Assembly: GCA_002897715.1 (NCBI GenBank)
Contig: BDUA01000011.1
Location: 1 to 59,514 of the forward strand
Origin: a bacterium BMS3Abin01
Lineage (GTDB): Bacteria; Actinomycetota; Thermoleophilia; BMS3ABIN01
Direction: 5' to 3'
DNA: 59,514 bases
Part shown: in pieces, positions 1 through 25,393 of the stretch
Position numbering within the stretch: the stretch's first letter is position 1
Layout: every line of letters starts with the position of its first letter
The notes under the pieces: model-generated
Database searches by the model: none
What the model was told of the DNA's origin: nothing
The model's input: the letters and a program-made list of their open reading frames with translations, nothing else
Made by a program: the position numbers and the translations under genes

Positions 1-2
1 CG

Positions 3-635
3 GTAAACCCCCTGGGTAACCTGGAAGGGGTGTCGGTGGGCGCCCTGGGCCAGGTAGATATAAGTGGCTGGGCCATAGATCCCGGTACCGCTGACCCCAT
101 AGAGGTCCACGTCTACGTGAACGGCCAGTGGGGCGGCGCCTTCACCGCCGGTGGCTACCGGCCCGACGTGGGCGGCGCCTACCCGGGCTATGGCGACAAC
201 CATGGCTTCAGCGGGTCTGTCCGCGCCAATGACGCCAGCAACACCGTCTGCGCCTACGGCATCAACACCGGCGCGGGAGACACCAACTCCCTGCTGGGGT
301 GCAAGGTGATCGATGTTCCCGTCGGTCCCATCGGCAATCTGGACGGGGTGTCGGCCGGCACTCCGGGCCGGCTCGATGTGGGTGGCTGGGCCATCGACCC
401 TGATACCACCGACCCCATAGAGGTCCATATCTACGTAAACGGCCGGTGGGGCGGTGCCTTCACCGCCGGCGGCAGCCGGACCGACGTGGGCGCCGTCTAT
501 CCGGGCTACGGCGACAACCACGGCTTCAGCGGCAGCGTGACCGCCGCCGTCTCGGAAAGCTACACGGTGTGCGCCTACGGCATCAACGTAGGACCGGGAG
601 ACACCAATCCCTTGCTGGGTTGCCGAACCACGTGA
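3..635 (+). CDS. 3' part of a surface protein ending in two GWAxDPD modules (5' end outside window)
   Basis: Frame is open from the window edge (gta aac ccc ctg ggt aac ctg). Contains two modules GWAIDP...HGFSG...VCAYGIN...LLGC. Confidence 0.85.
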   Translation, partial: VNPLGNLEGVSVGALGQVDISGWAIDPGTADPIEVHVYVNGQWGGAFTAGGYRPDVGGAYPGYGDNHGFSGSVRANDASNTVCAYGINTGAGDTNSLLGCKVIDVPVGPIGNLDGVSAGTPGRLDVGGWAIDPDTTDPIEVHIYVNGRWGGAFTAGGSRTDVGAVYPGYGDNHGFSGSVTAAVSESYTVCAYGINVGPGDTNPLLGCRTT

Positions 636-675
636 GGAATGAGTGTTAAGAACCTCCGGCAGCAGCTGAGGAAAC

Positions 676-2010
676 TCACGGCAGTCTCCTTTTTATTCTA
701 CCGGCAGCCCGTTTGAAACAACCAGCCAACCGCCGCCGGCTGCTCCAGTTCTTCCCAGGGCCGGGAATGCTGATAGCCAGCCTGCTGACGGTAGCATCGT
801 TCCGGTCCGCGTAGGCGATACTTTTGAGAAACCTTTTTATCGGTTGCGTGGTTTCCGACCAGTGGAATTCTGCGGCTACAGTCCGGAGGTTGCTGCTACA
901 ACGGCTACGGAGTTCATCATCATCCAGCAACCTCTCGATGGCATCAGCATAAGCCCGGGCATCACCGGGTCTGGTAACGAGCCCCAGCTTACGGTGCTGC
1001 ACCATGCTGCTGAGCGAGTCGCCATAGGTGGAGACGATCGGTAACGAAGACCAGATGCAGTCCAGGATTCTCGTGCGGAAGGAAAAACGGGTTTCGATGT
1101 GGTCGATATTGGCATTTACGCCCAGGTCGGACTCCAGCAGGAAGTTGACACGGTCCTTGTAAGCGACCCACCGGTCGTTAAAGAACACACTGCTGTTGAG
1201 GACACCCAGCTCACGGCTGAGCAGCAGCGCTTCGTCGTAGGCCCTCATCCTGGGAACGTTGGGGTCCGGATGCCCGGTACCCATGAAAAAAAGCTTTATG
1301 TCGCCACGTTTCTTAGCCAGGCTGGCTACCGCTCTGATGGGAGTGAATGGATCCAGCCAGTTATAAACGCCGCCACCCCAGAGCAGGATCTTATCGCCTG
1401 CACCGATTCCCGGATAAACTCCCTTCAGGACTTTTCCTGTAGCAACCGGTGGTTTGTCGGGAAGACCGAAAGGCACCACATCGATCAACTGATACAGGGA
1501 CTGGTCGTTATTGAAGCTCACCGGGTCCACCCGTCCGGCTGCGGACAGGAGACCCAGCCAGTAGTCCCTCTGCCGCTTTGAGGCACATATGAAAAAGTTA
1601 CCGAAGGCTAACTGTTCGATAATCGCAGACAGGACGTTTTCCTGCGTGGCGTTTTGCTCTGGGAGTCCGGCATGCTGGAACTGCGCCAGCGCCTCCAGGG
1701 CCATGGGGACGTAAAGATCGACGATAAGATACTTGCCAAGCTTCTTTATAGCGGGGAAATTATTGAGGATAAATCCCTGGCAGAGTATAGCGTCGCAGCT
1801 TGAAACCTGTTTGACCAGTGTCTTGTCTGAATAAGTAATCAGGTCGAAACCCTTGGGAGTAAGGTCGGACTCTTCCGGCGAGAATAACCTTACATCAGCT
1901 GTGTCGGCGAGCGCTCTGGCGAACTCCCAGCAGCGAATGCCCGGTCCCGCCATGGAGTCGGAGATCCGTTGATGGCTGATGATACCCAGGGTTATGTTGC
2001 CACCGGGCAA
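676..2010 (-). CDS. Glycosyltransferase, GT-B fold, family 4-like
   Basis: N-terminal MAGPGIRCWEFARAL; C-terminal ETRFSFRTRILDCIWSSLPIV nucleotide-sugar-binding region. Start moved to TTG 2010 (GAGGT upstream) to avoid overlapping the upstream stop at 2045. Confidence 0.8.
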   Translation of the reverse strand: MPGGNITLGIISHQRISDSMAGPGIRCWEFARALADTADVRLFSPEESDLTPKGFDLITYSDKTLVKQVSSCDAILCQGFILNNFPAIKKLGKYLIVDLYVPMALEALAQFQHAGLPEQNATQENVLSAIIEQLAFGNFFICASKRQRDYWLGLLSAAGRVDPVSFNNDQSLYQLIDVVPFGLPDKPPVATGKVLKGVYPGIGAGDKILLWGGGVYNWLDPFTPIRAVASLAKKRGDIKLFFMGTGHPDPNVPRMRAYDEALLLSRELGVLNSSVFFNDRWVAYKDRVNFLLESDLGVNANIDHIETRFSFRTRILDCIWSSLPIVSTYGDSLSSMVQHRKLGLVTRPGDARAYADAIERLLDDDELRSRCSSNLRTVAAEFHWSETTQPIKRFLKSIAYADRNDATVSRLAISIPGPGKNWSSRRRLAGCFKRAAGRIKRRLP

Positions 2011-2044
2011 TTTATCTACCTCTGGTTTCCGGTGAGCAACGGGA

Positions 2045-5000
2045 TCAGGACGTACTGTAGATGGCAACCCGGACATTCATATCGGTAGACAGGGGCTGGA
2101 TAACAGTGCCCTGATAATAGTAAGTGAGGATGTCGTTGAAACTGTCACCGCGCTCCGCCCGCATATAGGCTCCGTGGCCGCTCATGCCCACTCCGTGGCC
2201 GTTAAGAGCCATGCCGGCACAGTCCGGGTCGGGAACACTGGTCAGCCAGGGCCAGTAAGTGACTCCCCAGGCTTCCTGCGCCGAACGGGTCCTGCCATCC
2301 GAATTGGAGAAATAAGGCGTGATGGCCAAGGAACCATTATATGTCACCACCAGACCGTTGGTGGCGGTAACGGCGGCAGTCAGATCGGGGAAGCGTGCTT
2401 CCAGACCGTAGCCCTTGTATACCTGGTCATCGCCGTTGCCGTTACGGCTGTTCTTCAGGTGGAAGATATCCTGGCCGTTTTCGTAATACTTGCCGCCCCG
2501 GTTCACATGATAGAGAGCGTAATCACGGGCAGCGACGCTCATGGTTTTCAGGAATTCCTGCGGCGCCCCCGAGCTGCTTTCAGCGATCCCTCTCAGGTAG
2601 AGTTCCAGCGGCAGGTCATTGATGACCCAGACCTTTTGGGAAACGGGGGAATAACGGATTTCAACCGAGCCCCGGAAACGGTTATCGTCGAGGCTGGTAT
2701 CCCATGACGGGATATCGTGATAGGAGGTTACCTGCATTATCCCTTCAGCGTTTACCGGGTTCAGCCGGACATATGCCTGACTGGTCCTGCTGACGCCGGG
2801 TGCCTGGATGAAATATTCATCCGAGGAATAGCTCACAGTTACTGTCTCGCCGGCGTTAAAGGTAGCAAGCAGGGTCCCGTCGCCGTCGACGGCATTGAAA
2901 GCCGTGTCAGATGTCAAGGTGATCGGCACCCCGGGAGCTGGAACCGTGGTGCAGCCCAGGAAGGCGTTGTTCCCCAGCCCGGTATTTATGCTGTAGGCGC
3001 AGATATCATTACTGGCGGCGCTTACCGGCACAGTACCGCTGAAGCCGTGGGCAGCGCCGTAGCCGGGATAGGCGGCGCCCACATCGGTCCTGGTGGTATC
3101 GGCGGTAAAGGCGCCGCCCCACTGGCCGTTGACGTAGATGTGGATCTGGATGGGGTCGGTGGTGTCCGGGTCGATGGCCCAGCCGCTTACATCAACCTCG
3201 CCCGGGGCAGCCATCGACACCCCGTCCAGGTTGCCGAAGGGGTCTCCCGACAGCACGTCGACGACCTTGCATCCCAGCAGGGGGTTGGTGTCTCCCGCGC
3301 CCACGTTGATGCCGTAGGCGCACACCGTGTGCTGCCCGGGGGATACATTGTCCAGCTGGGCGCTGTAGCCGTGGTTGTCGCCGTAGCCCGGGTAGGCGGA
3401 GCCCACATCGGTCCGGGCGCTGTCGGCGGTAAAGGCGGTGACGTACTGATCGTCCACGTACAGGTGCACATCGATGGGGTCGGTGGTGTCCGGGTCGATG
3501 CCCCAGCCGTTCACATCAACCTGTCCCGGGTTTGCTACAGACGCACTGTCCAGGTTGCCGAAGGGGTCTCCCGACAGCACGTCGACGACCGTGCATCCCA
3601 GCAGGTTGTTGCCTCCGGGGCCGGTATTGATGCCGTAGGTACATACGGTGTGCGGCCCGGAGGATACATTGTCCAGCTGGGCGCTGTAGCCGTGGTTGTC
3701 GCCGTAGCCCGGGTAGGCGCCGCCCACGTCGGTCCGGGCGCCGTCGGCGGTAAAGGCGGTGACGTACTGATCGTCCACGTACAGGTGCACATCGATGGGG
3801 TCGGTGGTGTCCGGGTCGATGGCCCAGCCGCTCACATCAACCTGTCCCGGGTTTGCTACAGACGCACTGTCCAGGTTGCCGAAGGGGTCTCCCGACAGCA
3901 CGTCGACGACCGTGCATCCCAGCAGGGTGTTGGTGTCTCCCGCGCCCACGTTGATGCTGTAGGCGCACACCGTGTGCTGTCCGGGGGATACATCGTCCAG
4001 CTGGGCGCTGTAGCCGTGGTTGTCGCCGTAGCCCGGGTAGGCGCCGCCCACGTCGGTCCGGGCGCCGTCGGCGGTAAAGGCAGCGGCGAACCGGTCATCC
4101 ACATAGATATGCACGTCTATAGGGTCGGTAACGTCCGGGTCGATGGCCCAGCCGTTCACCTGGAAGCCAAAGGGGAGTCCCTGCCATGAGTCCAGGTTGC
4201 CGAAGGGATCACTGGGAATCGTCACGACCTCACATCCCAGCAGGGGGTTGGTGTCTCCCGCGCCTACGTTGATGCCATAGGTACACACGGTATGCGGGCC
4301 GGGGGATATGTTATTGATCTGGGCGCTGTAGCCGTGGTTATCGCCATGGCCCGGGAAGGCGGCGCCCACGTCGGTCCGGGCGCCGTCGGCGGTAAAGGCG
4401 GTGACGTACTGATCGTCCACGTACAGGTGCACATCGATGGGGTCGGTGGTATCGGGGTCGATGGCCCAGCCGTTCACCTGGAAGCCGAGGGTGATTCCCT
4501 GCAGGGAATCGATATTGCCGAAGGGATCACTGGAAATCGTCACGACCTCACATCCCAGCAGGGGGTTGGTGTCTCCCGCGCCTACGTTGATGCCATAGGT
4601 ACACACCATGTGTTGCCCGGGGGATACATTGTCGATCTGGGCGCTGTAGCCGTGGTTGTCGCCAAATCCCGGGTAGGCGGCGCCCACGTCGGGCCGGGCG
4701 CCGTCGGCGGTAAAGGTGGTGACGTACTGATCGTCCACGTACAGGTGCACATCGATGGGGTCGGTGGTATCGGGGTCGATGACCCAGCCGTTCATCTGGA
4801 AGCCGAGGGGGGCCGCCTGCAATGAGTCGACGTTGCCAAGGGGGTCGTTACCTAGGGAGTTGCCGGAAACGTCCACAGTGCTGCACCCCAGCAGGTTGTT
4901 GCCTCCGGCGCCGGTATTGATGCCGTAGGCACACACCGTATGCGGGCCGGGGGATATGTTATTGATCTGGGCGCTGAAGCCGTGGTTGTCGCCGTAGCCC

Positions 5001-5881
5001 GGGTAGGCGGCGCCCACGTCGGGCCGGGCGCCGTCGGCGGTAAAGGCGGTGACGTACTGATCGTCCACGTACAGGTGCACATCGATGGGATCGGTGGTAT
5101 CGGGGTCGATGGCCCAGCCGTTCACCTGGAAGCCGAGGGGGGTTCCCTGCAGGGAATCGATATTGCCGAGGGGGTAAAACAGCGGCACACTGAACCACCT
5201 CTCGGAAATAATGACGAAATTCTGATTGCCATGGAAGTGAGGCGTATATCTGTACAGGGATGCAGTCGCGCCGTTCTGTAAATAGACCGGTGTATCATCA
5301 ATTGTAATAGTGTCGCCGGTCAGGTATGGAGCGACCCGCGAATCACGGCTGTTGGCCAGGTCCATGTTCCAGCGGAGCTGCCAGGTGCCCCAGTCGACCT
5401 GCATGGCCAGGCCCGGATAGGACGAACAGGGGCTGGAGTCAGGGCAACCGTAACCCATGGCCCAGTCGATCGCCCAGGCCGGCGGCGCCGGGTTGGTGAT
5501 AAGGCTCTGTTCTTTCTGCAGGGTGGCCAGGATGACCTGAGGGTTTATTCCATACCAGTTTGCCACATTCCATATTATCTTTGAGGCACGCCAGCCCCTG
5601 GCGGCAATGTCGTTATTGGGGCCGATATAGGAATCCCTGGTTTCATAATAATCGGCGAGATAGCTGCCCTTGGATTCCAGAAAGGCCTGAACATCAGCTT
5701 CAGTCATGGTTGCCGTGTTGGTAAAGGCCGGGTCGGAAATTATATACGATGGGTTGAAGTCAGCCCTGGCGCTGCCATTGATATTCACCAGGATGACTAT
5801 CAGTAAAGCGAACAACGTAGAGACAGCCCACCTGGTGCAAGAAAAAAAAGCGGTCCGGTTTTCAACTTTATTATCCATCAT
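2045..5881 (-). CDS. Secreted multidomain peptidoglycan enzyme: N-terminal putative lysozyme-like domain, 7 GWAxDPD modules, C-terminal SpoIID/LytB domain
   Basis: Signal peptide. N-domain GINPQVILATLQKEQSLI...LYRYTPH. SpoIID motifs LELYLRGIAE, AARDYALY, DDQVYKG, YFSNSDGRT, GHGVGMS...ILTYYYQG. Confidence 0.85.
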   Translation of the reverse strand: MMDNKVENRTAFFSCTRWAVSTLFALLIVILVNINGSARADFNPSYIISDPAFTNTATMTEADVQAFLESKGSYLADYYETRDSYIGPNNDIAARGWRASKIIWNVANWYGINPQVILATLQKEQSLITNPAPPAWAIDWAMGYGCPDSSPCSSYPGLAMQVDWGTWQLRWNMDLANSRDSRVAPYLTGDTITIDDTPVYLQNGATASLYRYTPHFHGNQNFVIISERWFSVPLFYPLGNIDSLQGTPLGFQVNGWAIDPDTTDPIDVHLYVDDQYVTAFTADGARPDVGAAYPGYGDNHGFSAQINNISPGPHTVCAYGINTGAGGNNLLGCSTVDVSGNSLGNDPLGNVDSLQAAPLGFQMNGWVIDPDTTDPIDVHLYVDDQYVTTFTADGARPDVGAAYPGFGDNHGYSAQIDNVSPGQHMVCTYGINVGAGDTNPLLGCEVVTISSDPFGNIDSLQGITLGFQVNGWAIDPDTTDPIDVHLYVDDQYVTAFTADGARTDVGAAFPGHGDNHGYSAQINNISPGPHTVCTYGINVGAGDTNPLLGCEVVTIPSDPFGNLDSWQGLPFGFQVNGWAIDPDVTDPIDVHIYVDDRFAAAFTADGARTDVGGAYPGYGDNHGYSAQLDDVSPGQHTVCAYSINVGAGDTNTLLGCTVVDVLSGDPFGNLDSASVANPGQVDVSGWAIDPDTTDPIDVHLYVDDQYVTAFTADGARTDVGGAYPGYGDNHGYSAQLDNVSSGPHTVCTYGINTGPGGNNLLGCTVVDVLSGDPFGNLDSASVANPGQVDVNGWGIDPDTTDPIDVHLYVDDQYVTAFTADSARTDVGSAYPGYGDNHGYSAQLDNVSPGQHTVCAYGINVGAGDTNPLLGCKVVDVLSGDPFGNLDGVSMAAPGEVDVSGWAIDPDTTDPIQIHIYVNGQWGGAFTADTTRTDVGAAYPGYGAAHGFSGTVPVSAASNDICAYSINTGLGNNAFLGCTTVPAPGVPITLTSDTAFNAVDGDGTLLATFNAGETVTVSYSSDEYFIQAPGVSRTSQAYVRLNPVNAEGIMQVTSYHDIPSWDTSLDDNRFRGSVEIRYSPVSQKVWVINDLPLELYLRGIAESSSGAPQEFLKTMSVAARDYALYHVNRGGKYYENGQDIFHLKNSRNGNGDDQVYKGYGLEARFPDLTAAVTATNGLVVTYNGSLAITPYFSNSDGRTRSAQEAWGVTYWPWLTSVPDPDCAGMALNGHGVGMSGHGAYMRAERGDSFNDILTYYYQGTVIQPLSTDMNVRVAIYSTS
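2945..5175 (-). repeat. Seven tandem ~320 bp intragenic repeats (GWAxDPD module)
   Basis: caggttgccgaaggggtctcccgacagcacgtcgacgacc recurs at 3227, 3551 and 3872 (324 and 321 bp spacing). Boundaries approximate. Confidence 0.95.
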
Positions 5882-5909
5882 TGAATAATCGGCTCTCTGA
5901 TAAAAACTA

Positions 5910-6521
5910 TTACTGCGAACCGGTATAGGTTTTTATGCCCCCGGCGGAGTCTACATCTGACCTTGAGATTGTGAACTCTTCGGTAACAGCCACATATTTC
6001 CCGTCCTCAACCTTTAGGGCTCGAACGGTTTTTGTCTCCTGTTCAGCTGATATCTCACCGGCATCGAGGCCGCCGGCACCCGAGTACATGACGTTCTCGA
6101 ACGTTGTATGCCATTGACCTGATTCTTTCTCCTGTATAGTGAAACTGCCGGGCCCGTCAAGATAAAAGAATATGGAGATGTTCTTCTCGTTGATCCCCTT
6201 CTGGGCGGTGACGGTAGCGCTTAGCTTCGCCAGCGGCGGATGGTCAATAGTGGGTGCTGTGACGCCAGTCGTATCTTCTGGAACCGGCGGTAGATCATAA
6301 TTCCCGCTATTATCGGTTTTTACAGCTGCCCCTGACGAGATGGTATCTATCAAGGCACCTGTCTTTGTGGTCTCGTCCGGCTTGTCCGTGACCGTACCCG
6401 CCCGCTTCTCTGCATTCTGTGTTCCATCACAGGCCATCACAGGGAATACAAAGATTCCAACGGCGGTGATAATAAGTAAACTGATTATGATTGCTTTAAT
6501 CTTTTTATCCATGATCATCAT
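5910..6521 (-). CDS. Secreted or membrane-anchored hypothetical protein
   Basis: N-terminal KKIK plus hydrophobic helix, T/D/P-rich linker, beta-rich C-terminus. Co-oriented with neighbours. Confidence 0.7.
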   Translation of the reverse strand: MMIMDKKIKAIIISLLIITAVGIFVFPVMACDGTQNAEKRAGTVTDKPDETTKTGALIDTISSGAAVKTDNSGNYDLPPVPEDTTGVTAPTIDHPPLAKLSATVTAQKGINEKNISIFFYLDGPGSFTIQEKESGQWHTTFENVMYSGAGGLDAGEISAEQETKTVRALKVEDGKYVAVTEEFTISRSDVDSAGGIKTYTGSQ

Positions 6522-6732
6522 AGTTCGCGACTACCGCCCAGGGCTTTCTGACAATGATAATTAAAAGGGGGAATAGTATTCATTTTTCTAAAGGATCTCA
6601 ATATCCTTTTAATTCATACCCCGGAGATGCTTCCGGTTACACCTCTGGGCTGGTTAAGGGCTCGCGGCAAATTGTTATCTGGGGGTAAAATCAGCATGCA
6701 GCGGTCGCAAAAAGTGCGTCCCGGCGCCGCCC

Positions 6733-9540
6733 CTATATCTGACGGCACCCCAGCAGGGGGTTGGTGTCTCCCGCCCCCAGGTTGATGCCGTAGGCGCAGA
6801 CGGTGTAGCTTCCCGAGACGGCGGCGGTCACGCTGCCGCTGAAGCCGTGGCTGTCGCCGTAGCCCGGGTAGGCCGAACCCACGTCGGTCCGGGTACCGTC
6901 GGCGGTGAAGGCGCCGCCCCACTGGCCGTTCACGTAGATATGTACCTGGATGGGGCCGGTGGTGCCGGGGTCGATAGCCCAGCCGCCCATGTCTATCTGG
7001 ACATGGTCGGGGTCGGAGGGGTCGGGGCTGCCCAGGGAGAGCGAGTTCAGGTCACCGAAGGGGTTTACCGGCACATCGATCACCTTGCACCCCAGCAGGG
7101 GGTTGGTGTCTCCCGCCCCCTGGTTGATGCCGTAGGCGCAGACGGTGTTGACAGCGGAGCGAACCGCTACGCTGCCGCTGAAGCCGTGGCTGTCGCCGTA
7201 GCCCGGGAAGGCGGAACCCACGTCGGTCCGGGTGGCGTCGGCGGTGAAGGCGCCGCCCCACTGGCCGTTCACGTAGATGTGTACTGCTATGGGTTCAGCG
7301 GTGCCGGGGTCCAGGGCCCAGCCGCTCACATCGAGCTGGCCCGGAGCACCTGCCGATACTCCTTCCAGGTTACCGAAGGGGTTTACCGGCACATCGATCA
7401 CTCTGCATCCCAGCAGGGAATTACCTCCCGGCCCGGTGTTGATGCCGTAGGCGCAGACCGTGTTGCGGGCGGCGCTAACCGGGATGGTGCCGCTGAAGCC
7501 GTGGTCAGGCGCGTAATCCGGGTAGCTGTTATCCACGTCTGCCCGCGGGTCGTTTGCCGTCAGCACCCCGCCCCACTGGCCGTTCACGTAGATGTGTACC
7601 TGGATGGGTTCGATGCTGTCCGGGTCGATGGCCCAGCCGCCCAGGCTGAGCTGGTTGGGGCCGGCCAGGGAAAGGGAATTCAGGTCACCGAAGGGGTCCA
7701 CCGGCACATCGATCACCTTGCACCCCAGCAGGGGGTTGGTGTCTCGCACCCCGGCGTTGATGGCGTAAGTACACACCGTATGTGGACCGGAAGATACATT
7801 ATCGATCCGCGCGCTGTAGCCGTGGTCATCCCCATATCCCGGGTAGACGGCGCCCACATCGGTCCTGGTGTTATCGGCGGTAAAGGCAGAGACGTACCGG
7901 CCGTCCATATAAAGATGCACATCGATGGGCTCGGTAACATCCGGATCGATGGCCCAGCCATCCACATTGATCTGGTTGGGGCCGGTCAGGGAAAGTGAGT
8001 TCAGGTCACCGAAGGGATCCACCGGCACATCGATCACCTTGCACCCCAGCAGGGGGTTGCTGTCTCCCGCCCCCACATTGATACCGTAGGTACACACCGT
8101 GTGAGGACCGGAGGATACATTATCTATCTGCGCGCTGTAGCCGTGGCTGTCCCCGTAGCCCGGATAGGCGGCGCCCACGTCGGGCCGGCTGCCGTCGGCG
8201 CTAAAGGCAGTGATGTACCGGTCGTCCATATAAATGTGTACCTCGACAGGGCCGGTGGTGTCAAAGTCGATGGCCCAGCCGCTAGAGATAATTTGCCCAG
8301 GACCAGTTATGGCTACAGAGTCCAACGTTCCGTGCGGCCTGACAAAATCAACGTAGGCATCATTGCGCAGTGAAGGCAGATACTGATAAAGATTATCGCC
8401 CGGGCATGTTGTTGAAATCACATCCCTGTGTCCCAGGTAGTTGGGAAGGTAAGTTCCATTGAGATAATCGTTTCCGAGGGGATTGATCTGATTGACGATG
8501 GATTTCCAGGTCATCAGTTCCACCAGGGCCTTGTATGTCTGGGACGATACTTCCCCGCTTCTGTAATCGCCCAGAACGGCGATTCCGATCGAGCCGTAAT
8601 TCCAGCTCAGAGCGTGTCCGCCTATTACACCGTTCCCGCCATAGCGGCCTTCATATATATTTCCGTTACGGTCAACCAGGAAGTTGTAACCGATATCACC
8701 CCAACCCAGACTTACAGCATGATAATAATATATTGACCTTACCGTAGCTGCCGGATTCGAGTCGAAGTTGTTTGTAACAGTATGGTGGATTATCTGTTTC
8801 CTGGGTGTCTGGTACTCCGGCTCCCAGGTCATGTAATCCTCATCGGCGCCCCATTGGGCTCTGGAGATGATAGCCGGCTGGGCGCTGGCGGGCGGAGGCT
8901 GGGCAAAGGCGCCAACCTTTCTCCAGATAGCAGCCGGAGACAGCGGTGATTCATGGTAGCCCATAGCGTCGATATAACTGGCGGTCAGCCTGCTTACCGT
9001 CGGTGACTCACCAGCCTGGTTGCTGGTTAGATTAAGCCTGTACTGGAAAAAACGCGCTTCATCATAAAAGACAAGCTGACCTATTGTCTCCCCGGCCGAT
9101 TTCGTTTCATTGACATGATCCGGTACTGCATCATCGGCAACCGGGACCTTCAGCCAGTCACCCCAGTTCGTACCATCCCGGCTGAATCTTACTTCCGCCT
9201 CTACGCCACCGCCATCCGGCACATCTTCGACCCAATGGAGCCCCAGGGCGTTAAAAGCGTAGTCCGCCTGCAGCCGGCCGGAAGTATAGGTGCCGGCTGA
9301 TTCCGCCTCTGAAAGCATGATTACTTGTTGTCCAGTTCCGGTTATAGATGTTACGGAAGCGCCCTCCGTCGCTCCTTCGAGGAAATCAGAGCCTGACAGG
9401 ACAATATCGTCACCGATGGTCTCCGGCGGGGCCTGGTTACCACCGAACCCTCCGCTCGCCAGGGTAAAGACGACCAGGGCCAGAATGACTCCGGCGGTAA
9501 AGAATAAGCTACGATTCTTGATATTCAAAACCATTTCCAC
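6733..9540 (-). CDS. Secreted N-acetylmuramoyl-L-alanine amidase (Amidase_2/PGRP-like) with 5 GWAxDPD modules
   Basis: ISRAQWGAD, IIHHTVT, GWGDIGYNFLVD, GGHA, GHRDVISTTCPG (His/His/Cys zinc ligands). N-terminal signal/TM helix. Confidence 0.9.
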   Translation of the reverse strand: MEMVLNIKNRSLFFTAGVILALVVFTLASGGFGGNQAPPETIGDDIVLSGSDFLEGATEGASVTSITGTGQQVIMLSEAESAGTYTSGRLQADYAFNALGLHWVEDVPDGGGVEAEVRFSRDGTNWGDWLKVPVADDAVPDHVNETKSAGETIGQLVFYDEARFFQYRLNLTSNQAGESPTVSRLTASYIDAMGYHESPLSPAAIWRKVGAFAQPPPASAQPAIISRAQWGADEDYMTWEPEYQTPRKQIIHHTVTNNFDSNPAATVRSIYYYHAVSLGWGDIGYNFLVDRNGNIYEGRYGGNGVIGGHALSWNYGSIGIAVLGDYRSGEVSSQTYKALVELMTWKSIVNQINPLGNDYLNGTYLPNYLGHRDVISTTCPGDNLYQYLPSLRNDAYVDFVRPHGTLDSVAITGPGQIISSGWAIDFDTTGPVEVHIYMDDRYITAFSADGSRPDVGAAYPGYGDSHGYSAQIDNVSSGPHTVCTYGINVGAGDSNPLLGCKVIDVPVDPFGDLNSLSLTGPNQINVDGWAIDPDVTEPIDVHLYMDGRYVSAFTADNTRTDVGAVYPGYGDDHGYSARIDNVSSGPHTVCTYAINAGVRDTNPLLGCKVIDVPVDPFGDLNSLSLAGPNQLSLGGWAIDPDSIEPIQVHIYVNGQWGGVLTANDPRADVDNSYPDYAPDHGFSGTIPVSAARNTVCAYGINTGPGGNSLLGCRVIDVPVNPFGNLEGVSAGAPGQLDVSGWALDPGTAEPIAVHIYVNGQWGGAFTADATRTDVGSAFPGYGDSHGFSGSVAVRSAVNTVCAYGINQGAGDTNPLLGCKVIDVPVNPFGDLNSLSLGSPDPSDPDHVQIDMGGWAIDPGTTGPIQVHIYVNGQWGGAFTADGTRTDVGSAYPGYGDSHGFSGSVTAAVSGSYTVCAYGINLGAGDTNPLLGCRQI
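6745..8337 (-). repeat. Five tandem GWAxDPD modules
   Basis: Five GWA(I/L)D(P/F) ... LLGC units in the translation. Boundaries approximate. Confidence 0.95.
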
Positions 9541-9664
9541 TTTAGTTATTTACCACTCTCATTCATGACGTTCTTCCAAACATTTATATAATATTTACGC
9601 AGTTTTATCTGCACATCGGAACATATATCCTTTACTGACTATAATACTCGGTCAAAAAAATCTT

Positions 9665-11272: not shown

Positions 11273-11284
11273 CCGAAGCTGAAC

Positions 11285-12583: not shown

Positions 12584-14361
12584 TTCTCCCTCAAACCCCG
12601 GAGAGTATTCCCGTCCGTACCTGCCAGCGAAAGATTTTCATTGTAATAGGGATCTCCTCTTTGCAGGAAAGGCGCGTAGTGCCTTATCGAACATTCGATA
12701 TCCTTTTGATCAACCCAGGCCCTGCGCGTCTGCGCCTCATAATGATAAAGCCTGACGAAAGCGAGATAAACATTCCGGTAGCCGGCTGCATATAAACGCA
12801 GACACAGCTCCACGTCACTGCCACAAACCACGAATTCTTCATCGAAGCCGCCTACAGCTTCAAATTTTTTCCTGTCCACCATCAGGCAGGCGGCGGTAAC
12901 GGCCAGATAATTGCGGGTCCAGGTGTCCCGGCCAAAAGCGGTACTGCTGTTTTCCCTGGCGCCGGCGTAGATATGATCCGCGAAGCCGCCGATCCCCAGG
13001 ACTACGCCGCCATGCTGAATGGTCCCATCCTCGAAAAGCAGCTTGGCGCCCACGGCTCCTATTTCCGGACGCTGAGCGTACCCCAGCATTTCCTCGATCC
13101 AGGAGGGAGAAATCACCTCTGTGTCATTATTCAGGAATAAAAGATACTCTCCGGTCGCCTGTGCTGCTCCCCAGTTGTTTATTTTTGAGTAGTTAAAAGG
13201 GATGTCATAAGTAAATAATCTGACCCGGGGATGGTTCAGGCTTTCCAGATATTCCCGGGTTTCGCCTTCCCGGCTGTTGTTGGAGATCAGGATAACTTCA
13301 TAATCGGGGTAGCTGCTTTTTTCCAGGAGCCGGTCAATACAGTTCTTCAACAGCTCCACTTTGTCCTTAAAGGGAACGATGATGGAAACCTTCGGGCTTC
13401 CCCGTACCTTATATCTGACAATATATTCTGTGGATATGGCGCCGGCCGCAGCTGTCGCCTGCTCGCCCCTGGCGTCGAGAAAATCGGTTACAGCCTTAAG
13501 GCCGTCATCAGAGGAGTTGTCCTTTTCCGCCACAGTTGACCTTGCCGGCCGCGATGCCGTTCCGGAATGATACAGTATCCGGGGAATATGGAAGAACTTG
13601 TCGCTGACCAGGTAAATCCTTAATAACAGATCGTAGTCCTGTGCCCCGTCATACCCCGGCCTGTACCATCCCACACGATCCCCGATCTCCCGGCGAACCA
13701 CATAGAAGCGGTTGATGTAATTGACAGACATCAAAAGTTCCGGCGACCAGTCAGGCTTGAACCAGGGATCGAACCTGTTGCCGGCGGCATCGATCCTGTC
13801 TTCGTCGCTGTATATGAGATCAGCCCCAGGACGCTCATTGATGAGTCCAACGACCTCGGACAAGGCAAAAGGCGAAAGTTCATCGTTGTCGCCAAGGATG
13901 CCGATGTACTCGCCGCCGGCCATCCTGACGGCTTCGTTCGACCTTATGGATTTATCTTCGTTCTGTTCTCCCAAGGCAACAATTATCCGTGGGTCGTCCT
14001 GCCGCCCCCACCGGTCGAGACAGTCGATCGTTTCTTGTCTGCTGGACGCATTATCATGCAGACAGAGTTCCCAGTTATCGTAAACCTGCCGCCTCACCGA
14101 CTCTATGCACCGGTTCAGGGAGCCGGGGTCGGTGTTGAAAACCGTCACGATGAGCGAGATCTTCGGTTTGAGTTCATACCCTTGGATATCTTTTGTTACC
14201 TGTGATGATTCGCGGTTTTCGTTTTCCGCCAGCCACTTTTGGTAAACCCTGTCCTGATTGCCACCATGGCTGAAGCGACCTCGAATCCTTTCCAGCACTC
14301 CCCCATTGCCAGCTTTCTTGCATATTCGTTTTATACAGGCAGGCATCGGAATCTGGATCAC
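12580..14361 (-). CDS. Two-domain GT2 glycosyltransferase (RfbC/WsaE-like polymerase)
   Basis: Two GT-A domains: ISLIVTVFNT...IYSDED...FKPDWSPE...GAQDYDL and VSIIVPFKD...FLNNDTE...AVTAACL...SDVELCL. Confidence 0.88.
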   Translation of the reverse strand: MIQIPMPACIKRICKKAGNGGVLERIRGRFSHGGNQDRVYQKWLAENENRESSQVTKDIQGYELKPKISLIVTVFNTDPGSLNRCIESVRRQVYDNWELCLHDNASSRQETIDCLDRWGRQDDPRIIVALGEQNEDKSIRSNEAVRMAGGEYIGILGDNDELSPFALSEVVGLINERPGADLIYSDEDRIDAAGNRFDPWFKPDWSPELLMSVNYINRFYVVRREIGDRVGWYRPGYDGAQDYDLLLRIYLVSDKFFHIPRILYHSGTASRPARSTVAEKDNSSDDGLKAVTDFLDARGEQATAAAGAISTEYIVRYKVRGSPKVSIIVPFKDKVELLKNCIDRLLEKSSYPDYEVILISNNSREGETREYLESLNHPRVRLFTYDIPFNYSKINNWGAAQATGEYLLFLNNDTEVISPSWIEEMLGYAQRPEIGAVGAKLLFEDGTIQHGGVVLGIGGFADHIYAGARENSSTAFGRDTWTRNYLAVTAACLMVDRKKFEAVGGFDEEFVVCGSDVELCLRLYAAGYRNVYLAFVRLYHYEAQTRRAWVDQKDIECSIRHYAPFLQRGDPYYNENLSLAGTDGNTLRGLREN

Positions 14362-14375
14362 AGGTTACTCATGGA

Positions 14376-15455
14376 CTAAGACGCTCCGGGCGTCCTGGTC
14401 CGATTCGCCAACTCCACCAATCTGCGGACGGTCATGCCTGCCGCTCGTAACGGCCTGGTGATCTGCCAGCTGCGGGACGAGTGTATCCTTTGAATCTCTT
14501 CCCTTGACGTCCGCAGCTCTTTTTTCAGATGTTCCAGATGTTGCTGCTTCGCCTCTATTTCTTCGTTCTTCTTGATGACCAGGATCTCTTTTTCCTGATA
14601 ATCTTTCCTTAACTGCTCGTATTTCTCCTTGTCTTCCAGATATACCTGAGACAAAAGATTGAAATTGTTCTTAATGGCTTCGAGATGAAGGCTGGTACTG
14701 ACGCCGTCTTTTTCAAATGACAGGTTTTTCAGATCTTTTTCTTTTTTTATAAAGTAAATTGTCCGGTAAGAGCCCTCATCGTGGTCATAGGGATACAGCT
14801 GCTCGTTATAGAATTGGTTAAATTCCTTGGCTTTATCCAGTTTGTCCGCGGCAAGTAATATGAAGCTGGAGCAGAGCATCTGCTCCCACAGGCAGAGGTT
14901 GTTTATGGGAATCTTTTGAAAGTCGTATCCGTTGGCCCTTAGCGGGTCCTCGACCTCTTCGTTGCGGGGCAAGCCGTTTTCAATATGCTCTTTCAGCCAG
15001 AAATGATCATCCCCCCGGGAGATGAGCCTGTAACTGTCATTGGCGTTTTTCTCAGCCAGCTCCACCTCTTCGGAATAGAACGGCGCTCCCAGGATGACCC
15101 CCAGCCTGGCAACTCTCAGGTTTTCCATCAAGAATAGCTTTCTCCTTGACGGTTCGATATGTTCAAACACATCCGAGGAAACAACGAAGTCGAAACTGCC
15201 GTCTTCCAGGGGTATGTCGCAGCCATCGCCTTCTATATAGTTATGGTCATCGGAGTCAATGAGTGGATCGAGGTAGAACACGTCATCTTCGGGCATGAAG
15301 TTCTGCAACAGGTTGCCCCGCCCGCCGACATCCAGTATCCGGTATCTCTCCTGGTCATTCCTATTGATATTAATGATATCTCTGGTAGTCGCAAAGCGAC
15401 AATACTGGTCAAAGGCGAGCGTTCTTCTGAGTTGCTCTTCACCTATATCTTCCAT
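14376..15455 (-). CDS. Class I SAM methyltransferase with C-terminal coiled coil (glycan chain terminator-like)
   Basis: ILDVGGRG motif I, FDFVVSSDVFEH, an E/K/Q-rich heptad stretch, then SSRSWQITRPLR. Confidence 0.8.
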   Translation of the reverse strand: MEDIGEEQLRRTLAFDQYCRFATTRDIININRNDQERYRILDVGGRGNLLQNFMPEDDVFYLDPLIDSDDHNYIEGDGCDIPLEDGSFDFVVSSDVFEHIEPSRRKLFLMENLRVARLGVILGAPFYSEEVELAEKNANDSYRLISRGDDHFWLKEHIENGLPRNEEVEDPLRANGYDFQKIPINNLCLWEQMLCSSFILLAADKLDKAKEFNQFYNEQLYPYDHDEGSYRTIYFIKKEKDLKNLSFEKDGVSTSLHLEAIKNNFNLLSQVYLEDKEKYEQLRKDYQEKEILVIKKNEEIEAKQQHLEHLKKELRTSREEIQRIHSSRSWQITRPLRAAGMTVRRLVELANRTRTPGAS

Positions 15456-16660
15456 GAGGTCTCCAGTTTTACCACTCCGTACTGATTTTCCTCGGCGGAT
15501 TTGATCTTAAATGTATACTTTTTTTTCTGGTATGCGTAGGGTATTGACAGGTTCCAGTTAAATAATGCAACCGTCAGCTTATAGGCGCCGGTAAACAGGG
15601 GCGCTTCCTTGATAATGAAATCCAGATACCCCTCTCCCTGTATTTCCGGAATCATAAATCCGGAAGTCCTGGTATTGGGACCGGAGATATGGATGCCATC
15701 CTGAGTATGAATAGCCACGCCGAATACAGGTTTTTCAATGGTGTCCTCTGAAAAATAATGGATCCTGGCAACAATGTCATCTCCTGTTCCAAAGACATTT
15801 CTTTCCTGCCCCCGGCTATCCAGGAATTCCACATTGGTTATGCCGACATCCCCTTCCCTGAAAGTGCTTTCCTCATCATTCTCCTTCTGTTCTTCCTGAA
15901 TTCTCTTTTCTTCATCCTCCATGTTCTGGAGTATATATTCATTGCCGATATCCTCGGGTTTGCCGATTTTTACGATATCCCCGTTCCTCAATAACATGGC
16001 CCTGTCGCAATATCTTTGAACCACGGCGATGTCGTGAGTCACCAGCACAACGGTTTTGCCTTCTTCCCGGTATTTATTGAACTCCTCCAGGCACTTGTTC
16101 TGAAAATTGCTGTCGCCCACGGCCAGGACCTCATCCATCAAAAGAATCTCCGCGTGAGCGTAAATTGCCAGGGCAAACGCCAACCTGACCTGCATGCCGG
16201 ATGAGAAGTTTTTGAATTTCATGTCAATAAAATCCTGCAGCTCGGAGAACTCCACTATTTTATTGAATCTTTTCTTTATTTCTTTCTTGGTAAGTCCGAG
16301 TATTGAACCCCCGAGAAATATATTCTCCCTGGCGGTCAACTCCGGATTAAAACCGACCCCCAGTTCCAGGAAAGGTGAAATTCTTCCATTGATTTTGATT
16401 TTTCCCCTGGAAGGAACGTAAATTCCGGCGATAATTTTTAACAACGTGCTTTTGCCGCTTCCGTTTCTGCCGATAATCCCGAAAAACTCCCCCTTTTTCA
16501 CTTCAAAGCTGACATCCTCCAGCGCCTGAAACTCCGTGTAACTTTTTTTATTGAAGATATTCAACACCGCTGCTTTAAGGGTGGAATGCTTTTCGTGGGG
16601 AATCTTGAACCTTTTGGAAACAGCATCCACTTTAATAGCTATCTCAGTATTTTTCGCCAT
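15443..16660 (-). CDS. wzt: Polysaccharide ABC transporter ATP-binding subunit with C-terminal carbohydrate-binding domain
   Basis: GRNGSGKST, FSSGMQVRLAF, LLMDEVLAVGD and a Wzt_C-like C-terminal domain. Confidence 0.92.
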   Translation of the reverse strand: MAKNTEIAIKVDAVSKRFKIPHEKHSTLKAAVLNIFNKKSYTEFQALEDVSFEVKKGEFFGIIGRNGSGKSTLLKIIAGIYVPSRGKIKINGRISPFLELGVGFNPELTARENIFLGGSILGLTKKEIKKRFNKIVEFSELQDFIDMKFKNFSSGMQVRLAFALAIYAHAEILLMDEVLAVGDSNFQNKCLEEFNKYREEGKTVVLVTHDIAVVQRYCDRAMLLRNGDIVKIGKPEDIGNEYILQNMEDEEKRIQEEQKENDEESTFREGDVGITNVEFLDSRGQERNVFGTGDDIVARIHYFSEDTIEKPVFGVAIHTQDGIHISGPNTRTSGFMIPEIQGEGYLDFIIKEAPLFTGAYKLTVALFNWNLSIPYAYQKKKYTFKIKSAEENQYGVVKLETSWKI

Positions 16661-17454
16661 TAAATATCCTCAGCAAACCTGGAGGCTTCCCTCTCAAAAA
16701 ACCAATACCCGCTGATAAAAATGACAACAGGTAAAAGGTAGGGAATCAAGGAAAACGGGAAAGACAGAACATCAAAGGCGGTACTCGTCTCATTGGAAAT
16801 CAGGAGATAGCGGCTGTCCTGAATTATTTGAGAGAGGGGACTCAACATGATGACACTTTGATATCTATCGGGTACAAAGCTTAGCGGGTAAAGGATCGGG
16901 GTGGCATAGAACAAGACCTGAATCGTTACCTCCCAGATATGAGCGATATCCCGGAAGCGAACGAAGAATGATGCAAGATAAAGTGAAACCCCGATTGTGA
17001 AAATGATGAATTCAATCAGAATCAGGATAAACAGAGGTGAAGCTGCCGTAAGAGAGACTTTTGAGAAAGCCATGAAAATGAAAAAAACCACCAGATTCAA
17101 AAGCAGGGTTATCAGTGCTGTCAGTGAGGCGGTGACCGTCAGGATGATCCTTGGAAAATACACTTTCCTGATTAGGTCTCCTTTGCCGACGATGGACGTC
17201 AGTGAAGTGATAGTCGCTTCAGTAAAAAAAGTCCACAGCACGATTCCCAAAAGGAGGTATACGGGATAGTTGGGAATTGAACCGCCGATTTTAAAGAATT
17301 TGGTAAAAACAACCAGCAGTACACCAAAAAACATCAACGGTTTGCCCAAAGACCACAAATACCCAAAGAAAGAAGCTTTATATTTCAATTTGAAATCAGT
17401 AAGTATCAGTTCCCTTACTAATCCAAAATAATTATATGAGATTGTTTTTTTCAT
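16660..17454 (-). CDS. wzm: Polysaccharide ABC transporter permease
   Basis: DFKLKYKASFFGYLWSL, LIRKVYFPR, FRDIAHIW, FYATPILYP; multiple TM helices. Confidence 0.92.
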   Translation of the reverse strand: MKKTISYNYFGLVRELILTDFKLKYKASFFGYLWSLGKPLMFFGVLLVVFTKFFKIGGSIPNYPVYLLLGIVLWTFFTEATITSLTSIVGKGDLIRKVYFPRIILTVTASLTALITLLLNLVVFFIFMAFSKVSLTAASPLFILILIEFIIFTIGVSLYLASFFVRFRDIAHIWEVTIQVLFYATPILYPLSFVPDRYQSVIMLSPLSQIIQDSRYLLISNETSTAFDVLSFPFSLIPYLLPVVIFISGYWFFEREASRFAEDI

Positions 17455-17746
17455 ATATTTTTCTAAGAAGCAGCCCTTGACCTGGTGATAGCGCTCCTGA
17501 AATTTCCAGCTAAAGAAGTAAATTCCTAGAGTAGAACCCTCGAAGGGATCCCAAAATCAATCATGGGCGACTAAGCAGGAATAGAGTTTATCACATTCAA
17601 TGGTACAGATTGGAAGCCGGGCCGGGGCTTTTGCAGGAAACATCGAGTTCAATCAGAACGGCTGTCAGCCGCGAGGACGAACACCGGTATGAGAGGCGCC
17701 AAGCGGTAAAACAGCCGGCTCTGTCGATGGCCGGCAGGCCTGGTCT

Positions 17747-20700
17747 TTATTCAGTCCTGCATCCCAGCAGCGCGTTGCCGCCCGGGCCCTGGTTGATGCC
17801 GTAAGCACACACGGTGTTGCTGCCGGCCTGGGCCCCGACGATTCCGCTGAAGCCGTGACTGTCTCCGTAATCCGGATAAGCGATACCCACGTCCGGGCGG
17901 TCACCGTCGGCGGCAAGCACGCCGCCCCAGCGGCCGTTCACATAGACATGGACGTCTATGGGGTCGCCGGTGTCCGGGTCGATGGCCCAGCCACCGACAT
18001 CGATCTGCCCCGATGAATCCACTGAAACCCCGTCGAGTGCTCCAAAAGGATTCACCTGAACGTTTACTGTCTTGCAACCCAACAGGACATTTTCCCCGGG
18101 GCCGTTGTTTATTCCATAGGCGCAAACCGTATTGCCGGCAGCATCGGTTGAGATGCTCCCGGAAAAACCGTGATTATCCCCGTAACCCGGTATTGCGGAT
18201 CCTACATCGGGACGGCTCCCGTCAGCGGCTATGGCCGTGGCCCACCGGCCATTCACGTATATATGGACATCGATCGGGTCACTGGTATCCGGATCGATAG
18301 CCCAACCGTCGATATCCAGCCGCCCGGGATCTCCCGCCGAGACCGCGTCAACATTGCCGAACGCCGGCGCCGTAGTGTCCAGCACCGTAAAGGAACCGTC
18401 CAGGGGGGTGGCGTTTCCCGCCTTGTCGGCTATGGAACCGCCGACGGTATAGTCACCGTCTGCGAGACCGGTCACCTGGCAGGTGACGTCAGCGGCGGTT
18501 ACCTCGCATCCGGAAATGGGGTTGTCATCGATAGTGACTACCACAGCATCAGTGTCGATGCCTGAATCTTCATCGCTGTAGCCGGCATTGATCGACAGGT
18601 TGCCGGTATGTACGATCCCGGTGGGATCCACGCCGGTCACTGAAGGCGTGGTCGGATCGACCACAAAGTTCCACTGGTAATCCGCGGTGAGATGGTTGCC
18701 GGCCTGGTCCGCTACACCGCTGGTTATGATCGCCTTGTAATCCCGCACCTCGCCCAGATCGTTAACCGGGTCGAGTGTGGCTGTTCGCGTTCCGCTGTCA
18801 TAAGAGACTACGGCGGGAACCTGTTGTCCATAGGGATCTGCCTGCCTGACCAGTCTGAAGCTGGAGCCATCGATGGTGTTGGCATCGATATCCTCCGAAA
18901 ATGTCACTTTAATGCTGGAATTCATGGCGACCGCCGTGTCGCCATCGACGGGCACGGTAGAGATCAACGCCGGCGGGACTACGTCGGTCGTCGGCACATA
19001 AGCGTAGGATGTCTGATAGTCGTCTATCGCCACCGGGACTTCGACCGAGTCATACGTGCTCCCGTGGTCGGTTATGCTGAACCTGGTAATCCGGCCGGTG
19101 TCCGACCCGGCGGCATCATAGACCTTGAGATACCACCGGTCTCCCCAGCTGGGCGGCAGATGGGACACGGCATCATCAATATCGACCGTTACATTCAGTC
19201 CGTTGGCCGAACCCCCCTGCCGGTTGGAGACAACCGTGGACCAGTCGGGGGACGAAGGATCGCCCACACCCAACGTCACCACCAGATCGCCCCGGTAAGA
19301 ATGATCGATCTCTATCCGGGCTGTGGTCTGGGAGGGCATACCGCTGCCGGTGATGCCGACCGCGGCGAAGCCGCTATCCACAGCGAGGACTTCGACGCTG
19401 GTGGCGCCGTAAAGGTCAGCCGCCGCCTGCACGCTGGCGTCCCTGGCGTCCGAGAACTGGGAGCTGGAGGTAAGGTAGTCGGTCAGTGCCCGGTACCATA
19501 TCTGTTCCATCTTGTCCTTACCGATCGCCGCCGCTACGTTATAGGCGGCCTTGTTGGGGATACCGCTATTGGCATGAACGCCGCCGTTGTCGCTGCTGGT
19601 GTTGACGTAACTGTTCATATGGGCGGGCTGGCCGAACCGGGACGGGTCCGACAAGCTCCGCAACGCGTCCCCGGGAGTCTGGGGAGAATAGACATCCTCG
19701 CCCATCAGCCAGTCGTCGCGGTCCACCATGGCGCCCATCACGTCGGAGTAGGATTCGTTCAAGGCGCCGGACTGGTAGGAATAGACCAGGCCGGCCGTGT
19801 ACTGGGTGACGCCATGAGTCATCTCATGAGCGACCACATCTAGCGCGTTACCTAGCGGTGAGAAAACATATCCGTCGCCGTCGCCGAAGGTTATCTGTGA
19901 ACCGTTCCAGAATGCGTTGTTATAGCCACTGCGGTAATGCACCGTGCTCTTGATGTCCATCCCCGACCCGTTGATGCTGTCACGGCCGAATGTGTTGTAG
20001 TAATAATCGTAAGTACGTCCGGTGTTGTAGTAGGCGGCGTTGACCACCGAATCGCCGGTCCAGGCGCTGCCTTCATTCATCATCAGGGTGCCGGGAATAC
20101 TTGTACCGTAATTGGCTGTATAGGTCTGGCGGTTCACCACATCCTGCAGGGCGTTATACGCCGCCGCCAACTCACCGCTGTGGGCGTCGATGAAATACAC
20201 CATGCGGAGCGGCGGGTCCTCTGATACCAGGGTTACCTTCCAGGTCAGCGCCACGGAAGTCCCTTCCTGCGGCAGTATCACCAGTTCGGGAGGCTCCCGG
20301 TCCGATAAAACCGCGCCCTGTCCCAGCTTCGCCTGAGCTGTTTCCACAGCCGCGGCCTTACCGACCTCAGGCTCCACGGAAAGATCGATGCCGGGAAGGT
20401 AGTAACCGTTTATAGCCGAGATCTTCCCGTCAGCCGTGTAATGAAAGGACAACTCGGAGCCGAAGACCGGGACCCCCTTGTAAACCTGCGCCATGCGCAG
20501 ATGGGTCATGCCCAGACCATCCCGCTCCATCCGCTGCAGAACCAGTTCTTCCGCCGGCCGGGAGATCTGATAAATATCGCTATTCTCATCCAGGAATGCA
20601 TAGGTGGCCTCGGGGAGGCCGGCTGCCGCTGGAGGCGTTACGGGTCCGGTAAGGAAAGCCGGAACCCCCGTGTCCTTATCCCACCTTATGGTCGCCTGCT

Positions 20701-24112: not shown

Positions 24113-24115
24113 GCC

Positions 24116-25384: not shown

Positions 25385-25393
25385 ACCGTACCC

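Follow-up and report, generated by a model that had tools for sequence, protein, structure and literature searches.

How actinobacteria without mycolic acids retain their secreted enzymes on the wall is, to our knowledge, poorly described, and one end of a contig from the actinobacterium BMS3Abin01 (Thermoleophilia; contig BDUA01000011.1, assembly GCA_002897715.1) raises the question directly. There, five genes interleaved with a glycan-export cassette carry 19 copies of one module of ~105 residues. A reading made from the letters of the contig alone, hereafter the original prediction, had proposed that this module is a disulfide-stabilized, Ig-like cell-surface anchor for the exported glycan. 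We followed it through the whole contig (59,514 nucleotides, here called the window), related genomes and public databases. The module ends the proteins that carry it and trades places with three wall-binding domains (LGFP, CWB2 and LysM), so that it is most simply read as a wall binder. This substitution, seen in sequence comparisons, lends support to the anchoring role, and we consider it likely that the module binds the wall in some way.

A hidden Markov model (HMM) built from the repeats reproduces the 2+7+5+3+2 copies on five genes that were first counted, and Pfam agrees with the identities given to the four complete carriers. The first gene (3..635, plus strand) is a 3' end cut by the contig edge, in which two modules (3-314 and 318-632) are followed by a stop. 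The second encodes a protein of 1278 residues (2045..5881, minus strand) that had been described as SpoIID; it does possess a C-terminal SpoIID/LytB domain, but a second domain with a lysozyme fold (5186-5761) follows its hydrophobic N terminus, and seven modules lie between the two (2939-5185). An amidase of 935 residues (6733..9540, minus) joins Amidase_2 to five C-terminal modules (6736-8346), a glucosaminidase of 535 residues (9665..11272, plus) bears three (10268-11242), and a thermolysin-family M4 protease of 1086 residues (17747..21007, minus) combines FTP, M4, P-domain and Big_5 with two C-terminal modules (17750-18373). The complete carriers each have one hydrophobic stretch, at the N terminus. 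LPxTG was not found in their final 60 residues and a Pfam scan of the carriers gave no SLH, LysM, CWB2 or LGFP match, which upholds the earlier remark that LPxTG, SLH and LysM anchors are absent from them.

The copies are 103-112 residues long and score 153-185 bits each against their own profile. All of them lie within positions 3-18373; the extent given originally (1..18365) was essentially right, although the last copy ends near 18373. An HMM search of the rest of the 1.5-Mb, 86%-complete assembly found no further copy. Every copy contains exactly two cysteines, and the invariant columns include G6, G23, W24, D27, R54, D56, V57, H68, G69, C85, G101 and C102. The GW pair is present in all 19, with an acidic residue 13-16 positions upstream in each, and the R(T/P)DV motif noted at the outset is there too, although RADV and RFDV forms also occur. 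Similar conservation is found in 733 representatives (<70% identity) drawn from 120 database proteins and fetched loci, a set biased towards the window because it was picked with the window's profile: G6, G23, W24, D27, A50, R54, D56, G65, H68, G69, C85 and C102 are kept at 95-100%, and both cysteines are present in 720. The cysteine pair and the W/D/R/H residues stressed in the original prediction are thus conserved well beyond the window.

At 50-93% pairwise identity in DNA, the copies are diverged duplicates and not one collapsed repeat. This divergence, homologous arrays in a relative of the same genus (G001) and coverage by contigs from four public sequencing runs rule out an assembly artefact; the runs come from two studies, one possibly the source, and give depth on 28-30 of 30 bins across positions 1-12000. 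Among the differences listed for a 2340-base contig of run X2, which has 47 other letters and five gaps overall, a dense group with small indels falls at window 8049-8251, inside the first amidase module; 41 further rows lie outside that listing. The pattern hints at repeat exchange between strains, or at a mis-join.

The module is widespread. At least 1845 of 7997 scored candidate proteins pass an E-value of 1e-5, the named hits being from Microbacteriaceae and Acidimicrobiia, and most of the named proteins are called 'hypothetical'. It occurs in 10 of 61 relatives (host genome included), in 10 of 251 genomes of a phylum sample (where no more than 19 candidates were scored for any genome) and in 29 of 101 genomes of the Microbacteriaceae, the family of a Microbacterium genome. 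Most carriers are wall enzymes (GH25, M23, CHAP, Amidase_2, SpoIID and glucosaminidase); RCC1, S8, CAP and propeller proteins carry the module elsewhere. In 118 of the 120 top hits no more than 25 residues separate the end of the array from the C terminus, and none is printed with LPxTG. As with SLH- and CWB2-type anchors, then, a tandem domain is found on diverse wall proteins that are predicted to be exported and lack LPxTG. A phage origin was considered and rejected, as no match was found among 50,697 phage records or in IMG/VR by searches that reach near relatives only.

Orthologues of the carriers reveal what can stand in for the module. Among amidase orthologues that are 56-65% identical, the module is found in the host (G000) and in G001; G008 and G023 have LGFP, and in G012 and G018 the same slot is taken by a third repeat without a Pfam match. 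The glucosaminidase orthologue of G022 (75% identical) bears eight LGFP stretches instead of the module, and on a PSII_BNR propeller protein the module seen in G001 is replaced by LGFP in G022. A comparable exchange is seen in the Microbacteriaceae, where we compared the tails (up to 500 residues) behind the 30 best matches to the lysozyme-fold carrier. Fifteen consist of the module; the others hold CWB2 alone (two), LGFP with CWB2 (three), LGFP with FG-GAP (one), FG-GAP (one), LysM (one), DUF4214 (one) or no family over cut-off (six). The module profile has no match in these 15 other tails, and the Pfam scan found no CWB2, LGFP or LysM in 5 of the 15 module tails. At the level of whole genomes, module matches number 19, 40 and 6 in the three members of the host genus, none of which has LGFP; that domain occurs in 12 of 23 family relatives. 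A general exclusion of the module by LGFP was rejected: in the Microbacteriaceae the overlap is 0 of 7 (strict threshold, p 0.09), but four overlaps occur in the host family.

Both of the better described replacements resemble the module in arrangement and differ from it in build. According to passages of PMC4973711, CWB2 of Clostridioides difficile binds the wall polymer PSII, and CWB2 genes adjoin the polymer locus; LGFP binds peptidoglycan-arabinogalactan, as shown by pull-down for MytA of C. glutamicum and summarized in passages of PMC11299179. Like CWB2, the module forms tandem domains on many secreted wall proteins with genes beside a polymer locus, and it takes the same slot on the Microbacteriaceae enzyme. 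It has no sequence or fold match to CWB2, however, and whereas CWB2 comes as exactly three non-interchangeable motifs with a proven ligand, the module comes as 1-8 free copies with an inferred one. Like LGFP, it is an actinobacterial tandem array on wall enzymes and directly replaces LGFP on orthologous amidase, glucosaminidase and propeller proteins, but LGFP is a ~54-residue helix-plus-sheet unit without sequence relation to it.

Two further kinds of tail were encountered. Six Microbacteriaceae carriers (L143, L147, L155, L158, L162 and L163) have a repeated tail in the anchor slot with no Pfam family over cut-off. The third repeat mentioned above, also ~105 residues and without a Pfam match (YYWTWYD...NWVLVANP...GGPVEV...ASQRV...EEVPG; L130:3776-7468(+), L131:13698-17405(-), L133:3-2618(+)), occupies the same slot in G018, G012 and G011, on an amidase-SpoIID gene that lies next to wzm, and is by its position a candidate for another anchor.

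The original prediction had called for a check of co-occurrence with wzm/wzt. Among the matches listed, 25 of 29 Microbacteriaceae genomes have a module array no more than 10 kb from wzm (26 of 36 arrays), and none of 150 listed NlpC/P60 control genes lies within 50 kb; these counts leave out 26 wzm and 29 NlpC matches. In 72 loci from 54 genomes, many of them cut short and their markers verified by Pfam, wzm/wzt is present in 25, rml genes in 20, one or the other in 35, and RgpF in 7. The co-occurrence is therefore real, as is the clustering with wall-polymer synthesis genes known from SLH- and CWB2-type anchors, but both are confounded by the carrier enzyme. A lysozyme-fold carrier is found within 10 kb of wzm in 28 of 29 genomes with the module vs 36 of 69 without it (Fisher p 7e-6, and 3e-4 when restricted to genomes for which a wzm is listed), in a comparison that treats kin genomes as independent and uses a wzm profile built mostly from module loci. 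The gene clustering is thus largely the carrier enzyme's, and the module adds an excess. In five loci (L070, L073, L074, L087 and L097) a CWB2 protein directly adjoins module genes together with wzm/wzt or glycosyltransferase genes.

Which polymer might be bound? The cassette of the window runs on the minus strand and consists of a WsaF-like glycosyltransferase (WsaF_N and WsaF_C by Pfam; 11285..12583), a double GT2 glycosyltransferase (12580..14361, Pfam), a methyltransferase with a charged helical tail (14376..15455, Pfam), a Wzt ATPase with a Wzt_C domain (15443..16660) and the Wzm ABC-2 permease (16660..17454). By analogy with Wzt_C-type systems, we take the methyltransferase to be chain-terminating. 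The original tie to a WsaF-type glycan, and with it the expected co-occurrence with WsaF-like loci, did not survive: WsaF_C is over cut-off in 8 of the 61 genomes and the module in 10, and the two meet only in the host. G015 and G022 have the cassette with its gene order unchanged (Wzt 78-80%, Wzm 75%, WsaF 70%) next to LGFP proteins, whereas G001, of the host's genus and with 40 module matches, has a different one (Wzt at 41% and Wzm at 29%, with WsaF nowhere over cut-off). Since Wzt is nearer to another genus than to this congener, and since GC content is 47-52% in the cassette region at 12-18 kb vs 56-65% in the remaining window beyond 18 kb, the cassette (11285-17454) has probably been exchanged.

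Module and cassette vary independently of one another, which rules out as ligand any sugar unit peculiar to the WsaF cassette, and a WsaF-specific ligand was rejected. A rhamnan-specific one fared no better: RgpF is found in 8 of 29 Microbacteriaceae genomes with the module vs 7 of 72 others (p 0.03; 0.06 leaving out the centre genome), and a strong RmlC match is present in only 2 of 23 family relatives and not in the host. With WsaF, RgpF and the cassette swap all considered, the module does not co-vary with one polymer chemistry. These distributions leave as candidates peptidoglycan or some component that many such polymers share. The host genome has three LCP matches and one sortase; its assembly gives no match to SLH, CWB2 or LGFP and one LysM, on another contig.

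An AlphaFold (AF2) model of the module (pLDDT 90.6) is a sandwich of seven strands in which RxDV forms a short helix, and the two cysteines sit on the last two strands. Its structural matches are FNIII and Ig modules with Z-scores of 8-9 (top CbhA 3pe9, Z 9.2, rmsd 2.2, 81 aligned), so the Ig-like fold proposed originally is supported as far as a predicted model allows. No Foldseek match in the PDB reaches E <= 0.001 and no PDB entry is related in sequence; in BFVD four matches do so, nameless or generic Ig. As the original prediction had suspected, no Pfam family claims the module: none of the 19 copies passes any cut-off, the best being Big_7 (E 0.041, on 2 of the 19), and on two whole window proteins Big_7 reaches 15.0-15.5 bits vs a gathering cut-off of 24.1. 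NCBIfam and PHROGs have no family above cut-off for it either. Matches to NAD kinase, ribosomal S6e and PA-IIL were discarded as summed noise with no significant stretch, and a GBS Bsp-like repeat (Atlas score 0.82) is a lead only.

Relatives of the module are nevertheless in print. A 2024 study models the RDV repeats of Lactobacillaceae GH70 glucansucrases as FNIII domains; there (PMC11299179) the repeats have an undetermined role, and a conserved Asp, a GW pair and the RDV motif form a modelled surface Asp-Arg-Asp patch. An RPDV pattern, which builds that part of any match in, was used to fetch 21 metagenome loci, of which eight were analyzed; these encode GH70 enzymes bearing five repeats each as well as YkuD, GH25, M23, C39 and glucosaminidase proteins. 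Over 70 columns, hhalign matches the window alignment to 10 GH70 repeats at 87% (E 3.7e-6) and to 30 RDV repeats at 93%; five Big_7-annotated repeats match at 95% (E 3.8e-8), and a reversed-repeat control gives 0.2%. The match includes G-x-L-D and GW, neither of which formed part of the pattern used for fetching. The first half of the published consensus, R(P/N/S/T/Q)DV-x11-12-(S/A)G(Y/F)-x17-22-R(Y/F)S, matches none of the 19 copies; a relaxed RDV pattern with x10-H matches all of them.

The comparison with those passages gives the same mixture of likeness and difference. Both modules are tandem arrays on secreted enzymes and FNIII-like sandwiches in which an acidic residue is followed 13-16 residues on by GW, and R-x-D-V by G(F/Y). 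The present one, however, has ~105 residues vs ~125, RxDV-x10-HG(F/Y) vs x11-12-(S/A)G(Y/F), and C(A/T)Y(G/S/A) with a second cysteine where RDV repeats have R(Y/F)S; its GW-to-R spacing is 31 vs 34-41 in 29 of 30 fetched RDV repeats. It is C-terminal, in 1-8 copies, in Actinomycetota, whereas the GH70 repeats are N-terminal, in five copies, in Lactobacillaceae. As for Big_7 (PF17957, a bacterial Ig domain), the matched repeats come from a low-GC glucosaminidase with six Big_7 stretches, two G001 carriers exceed the whole-protein cut-off through summed weak stretches, and Atlas neighbours have Big_7 on 19-66% of members. Big_7 is, however, a generic label whose description names no ligand. Profile matches of 87-95% alongside a published pattern found in 0 of 19 copies make the module, by sequence, a shorter, Cys-paired actinobacterial branch of the RDV-type FNIII and Big_7-annotated group, homologous to it yet outside it by the printed consensus. 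The view that the module belongs to no named family thus stands, but it does have described relatives. The open-access literature yielded no paper on the actinobacterial module itself; subscription papers, among them the MytA study and the one that first described RDV repeats, are outside that search. A marine-contig TPR protein has a single RDV-like domain (L172:2378-4648(-)), and the RDV group may extend beyond wall hydrolases.

We propose, at about even confidence, that tandem RDV-type FNIII/Ig-like arrays hold secreted wall hydrolases non-covalently by binding a conserved part of the polysaccharide exported by Wzm/Wzt. The carriers would leave the cell by Sec. In the model, a C85-C102 disulfide could join the last two strands, and W24, D27, R54, D56 and H68 would form a surface patch; 2-7 copies would give avidity. 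The genome's LCP proteins, of a kind that attaches wall polymers to peptidoglycan (passages of PMC10100865), would fix the polymer, and the array would then tether the hydrolase through the conserved part of the polysaccharide that Wzm/Wzt would export. More tentatively, and at rather less than even confidence, the Cys-paired module may be an unrecognized Actinomycetota anchor on a conserved linker or backbone of Wzm/Wzt polysaccharides, interchangeable as SLH, CWB2 and LGFP are, and together with its low-GC homologues one cross-phylum RDV wall-binding superfamily.

Several observations weigh against this proposal. The wzm gene is found in 95 of 101 Microbacteriaceae genomes irrespective of the module, and the carrier enzyme keeps company with it in the 36 module-free genomes counted above; 37 of the 72 loci have no wzm/wzt/rml (many being cut short), and some full-length ones have RCC1, S8 or DMFA2 proteins at a distance from glycan genes. 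Certain genomes, of Acidimicrobiia and of other groups, scatter 26-31 copies over many unlinked genes, RCC1, S8 and DMFA2 among them. Of 10 genomes with the module one also has WsaF, an RgpF match is missing from 21 of 29 module genomes, and G001, 99% complete, has merely a weak RmlC match. Four family genomes hold LGFP plus 2-4 module matches. The best structural matches are generic FNIII domains, none clear of the rest, and the RxDV motif is lost from the arrays in L137, L145 and L153. These divergent arrays retain GW, HG(F/Y) and the fold pattern, with a Trp-containing stretch in place of RxDV.

Some of this would be expected if the module anchored to peptidoglycan itself, or to another universal wall component, and merely rode along with hydrolase genes at the glycan locus. 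It exchanges with LysM as well as LGFP and is indifferent to cassette type, its RDV homologues sit on low-GC YkuD, GH25, M23, C39 and glucosaminidase proteins, and the carrier adjoins wzm without it too. The tighter wzm linkage in module genomes speaks for the exported polysaccharide instead, and generic peptidoglycan binders are common on endolysins, whereas the phage records and IMG/VR gave no relative within the near range searched. We regard a peptidoglycan ligand as unlikely, though still to be reckoned with. A little less probable is that the array is a rigid spacer or stalk in which the conserved salt bridge and Cys pair are structural. FNIII modules act so in many carbohydrate-active enzymes, CbhA being the best fold match here; the seven copies of 2045-5881 do sit between two catalytic domains, and RxDV can be lost. 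Yet an array that comes last in nearly all top hits has nothing to space, the module replaces proven binding domains, and the GH70 authors, in the passages of PMC11299179, rate a linker role for their repeats as less likely.

The module could instead mediate protein-protein contacts, as in a surface lattice, an enzyme complex or adhesion, or accept an S-layer-type glycan from the WsaF cassette. It is common to five proteins at one locus, a protease included, and elsewhere to the RCC1, S8, CAP and propeller proteins; in Geobacillus, the glycans of S-layer glycoproteins are made by WsaF and Wzm/Wzt. However, the module does not follow WsaF, glycan binders replace it on orthologues, and no oligosaccharyltransferase-like gene was recognized in 1-24 kb, all of which leaves such roles improbable. 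Whatever its ligand, the module is real and widespread; no family model describes it, and the published repeat to which it is related has no assigned role. Should it bind the wall, SLH, CWB2 and LGFP would be joined by another anchor, one that might serve as a display tag or cell probe, and wall binding would suggest a function for the GH70 RDV repeats that the passages of PMC11299179 leave open.

The locus has further genes. A GT4 glycosyltransferase (676..2076, minus; Pfam and comparison) has 61-65% orthologues that follow wzt in G001, G008, G010 and G023. A 203-residue exported protein (5910..6521, minus) belongs to no family, with a weak CarboxypepD_reg match, and its G001 orthologue (39%) precedes the same gene. 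Beyond the protease, a second GT4 glycosyltransferase (21277..22389, plus; 66-80% orthologues) opens the conserved left border of the glycan locus in the family, which comprises GT4, PolX-PHP and an HExxH protein (window 21277-26308). Promoter and terminator scans were at chance level, and Gaiellales-labelled loci carry orthologues at 72-79% identity, from which the host probably belongs to the Gaiellales.

The N-terminal domain of the SpoIID protein deserves attention of its own. It has no Pfam family and no sequence relative in the PDB, but its predicted model (pLDDT 90) matches S. pneumoniae LytB best (Z 10.6, rmsd 3.1, 133 aligned), and a Glu in LQKEQ is invariant (invariant LxKE). The domain is present in 98 of the 101 Microbacteriaceae genomes, often adjoining wzm, and on the strength of the model is likely an undescribed peptidoglycan hydrolase family. 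Two hits with an architecture like that of the lysozyme-fold carrier bear the UniRef label 'Hemagglutinin'.

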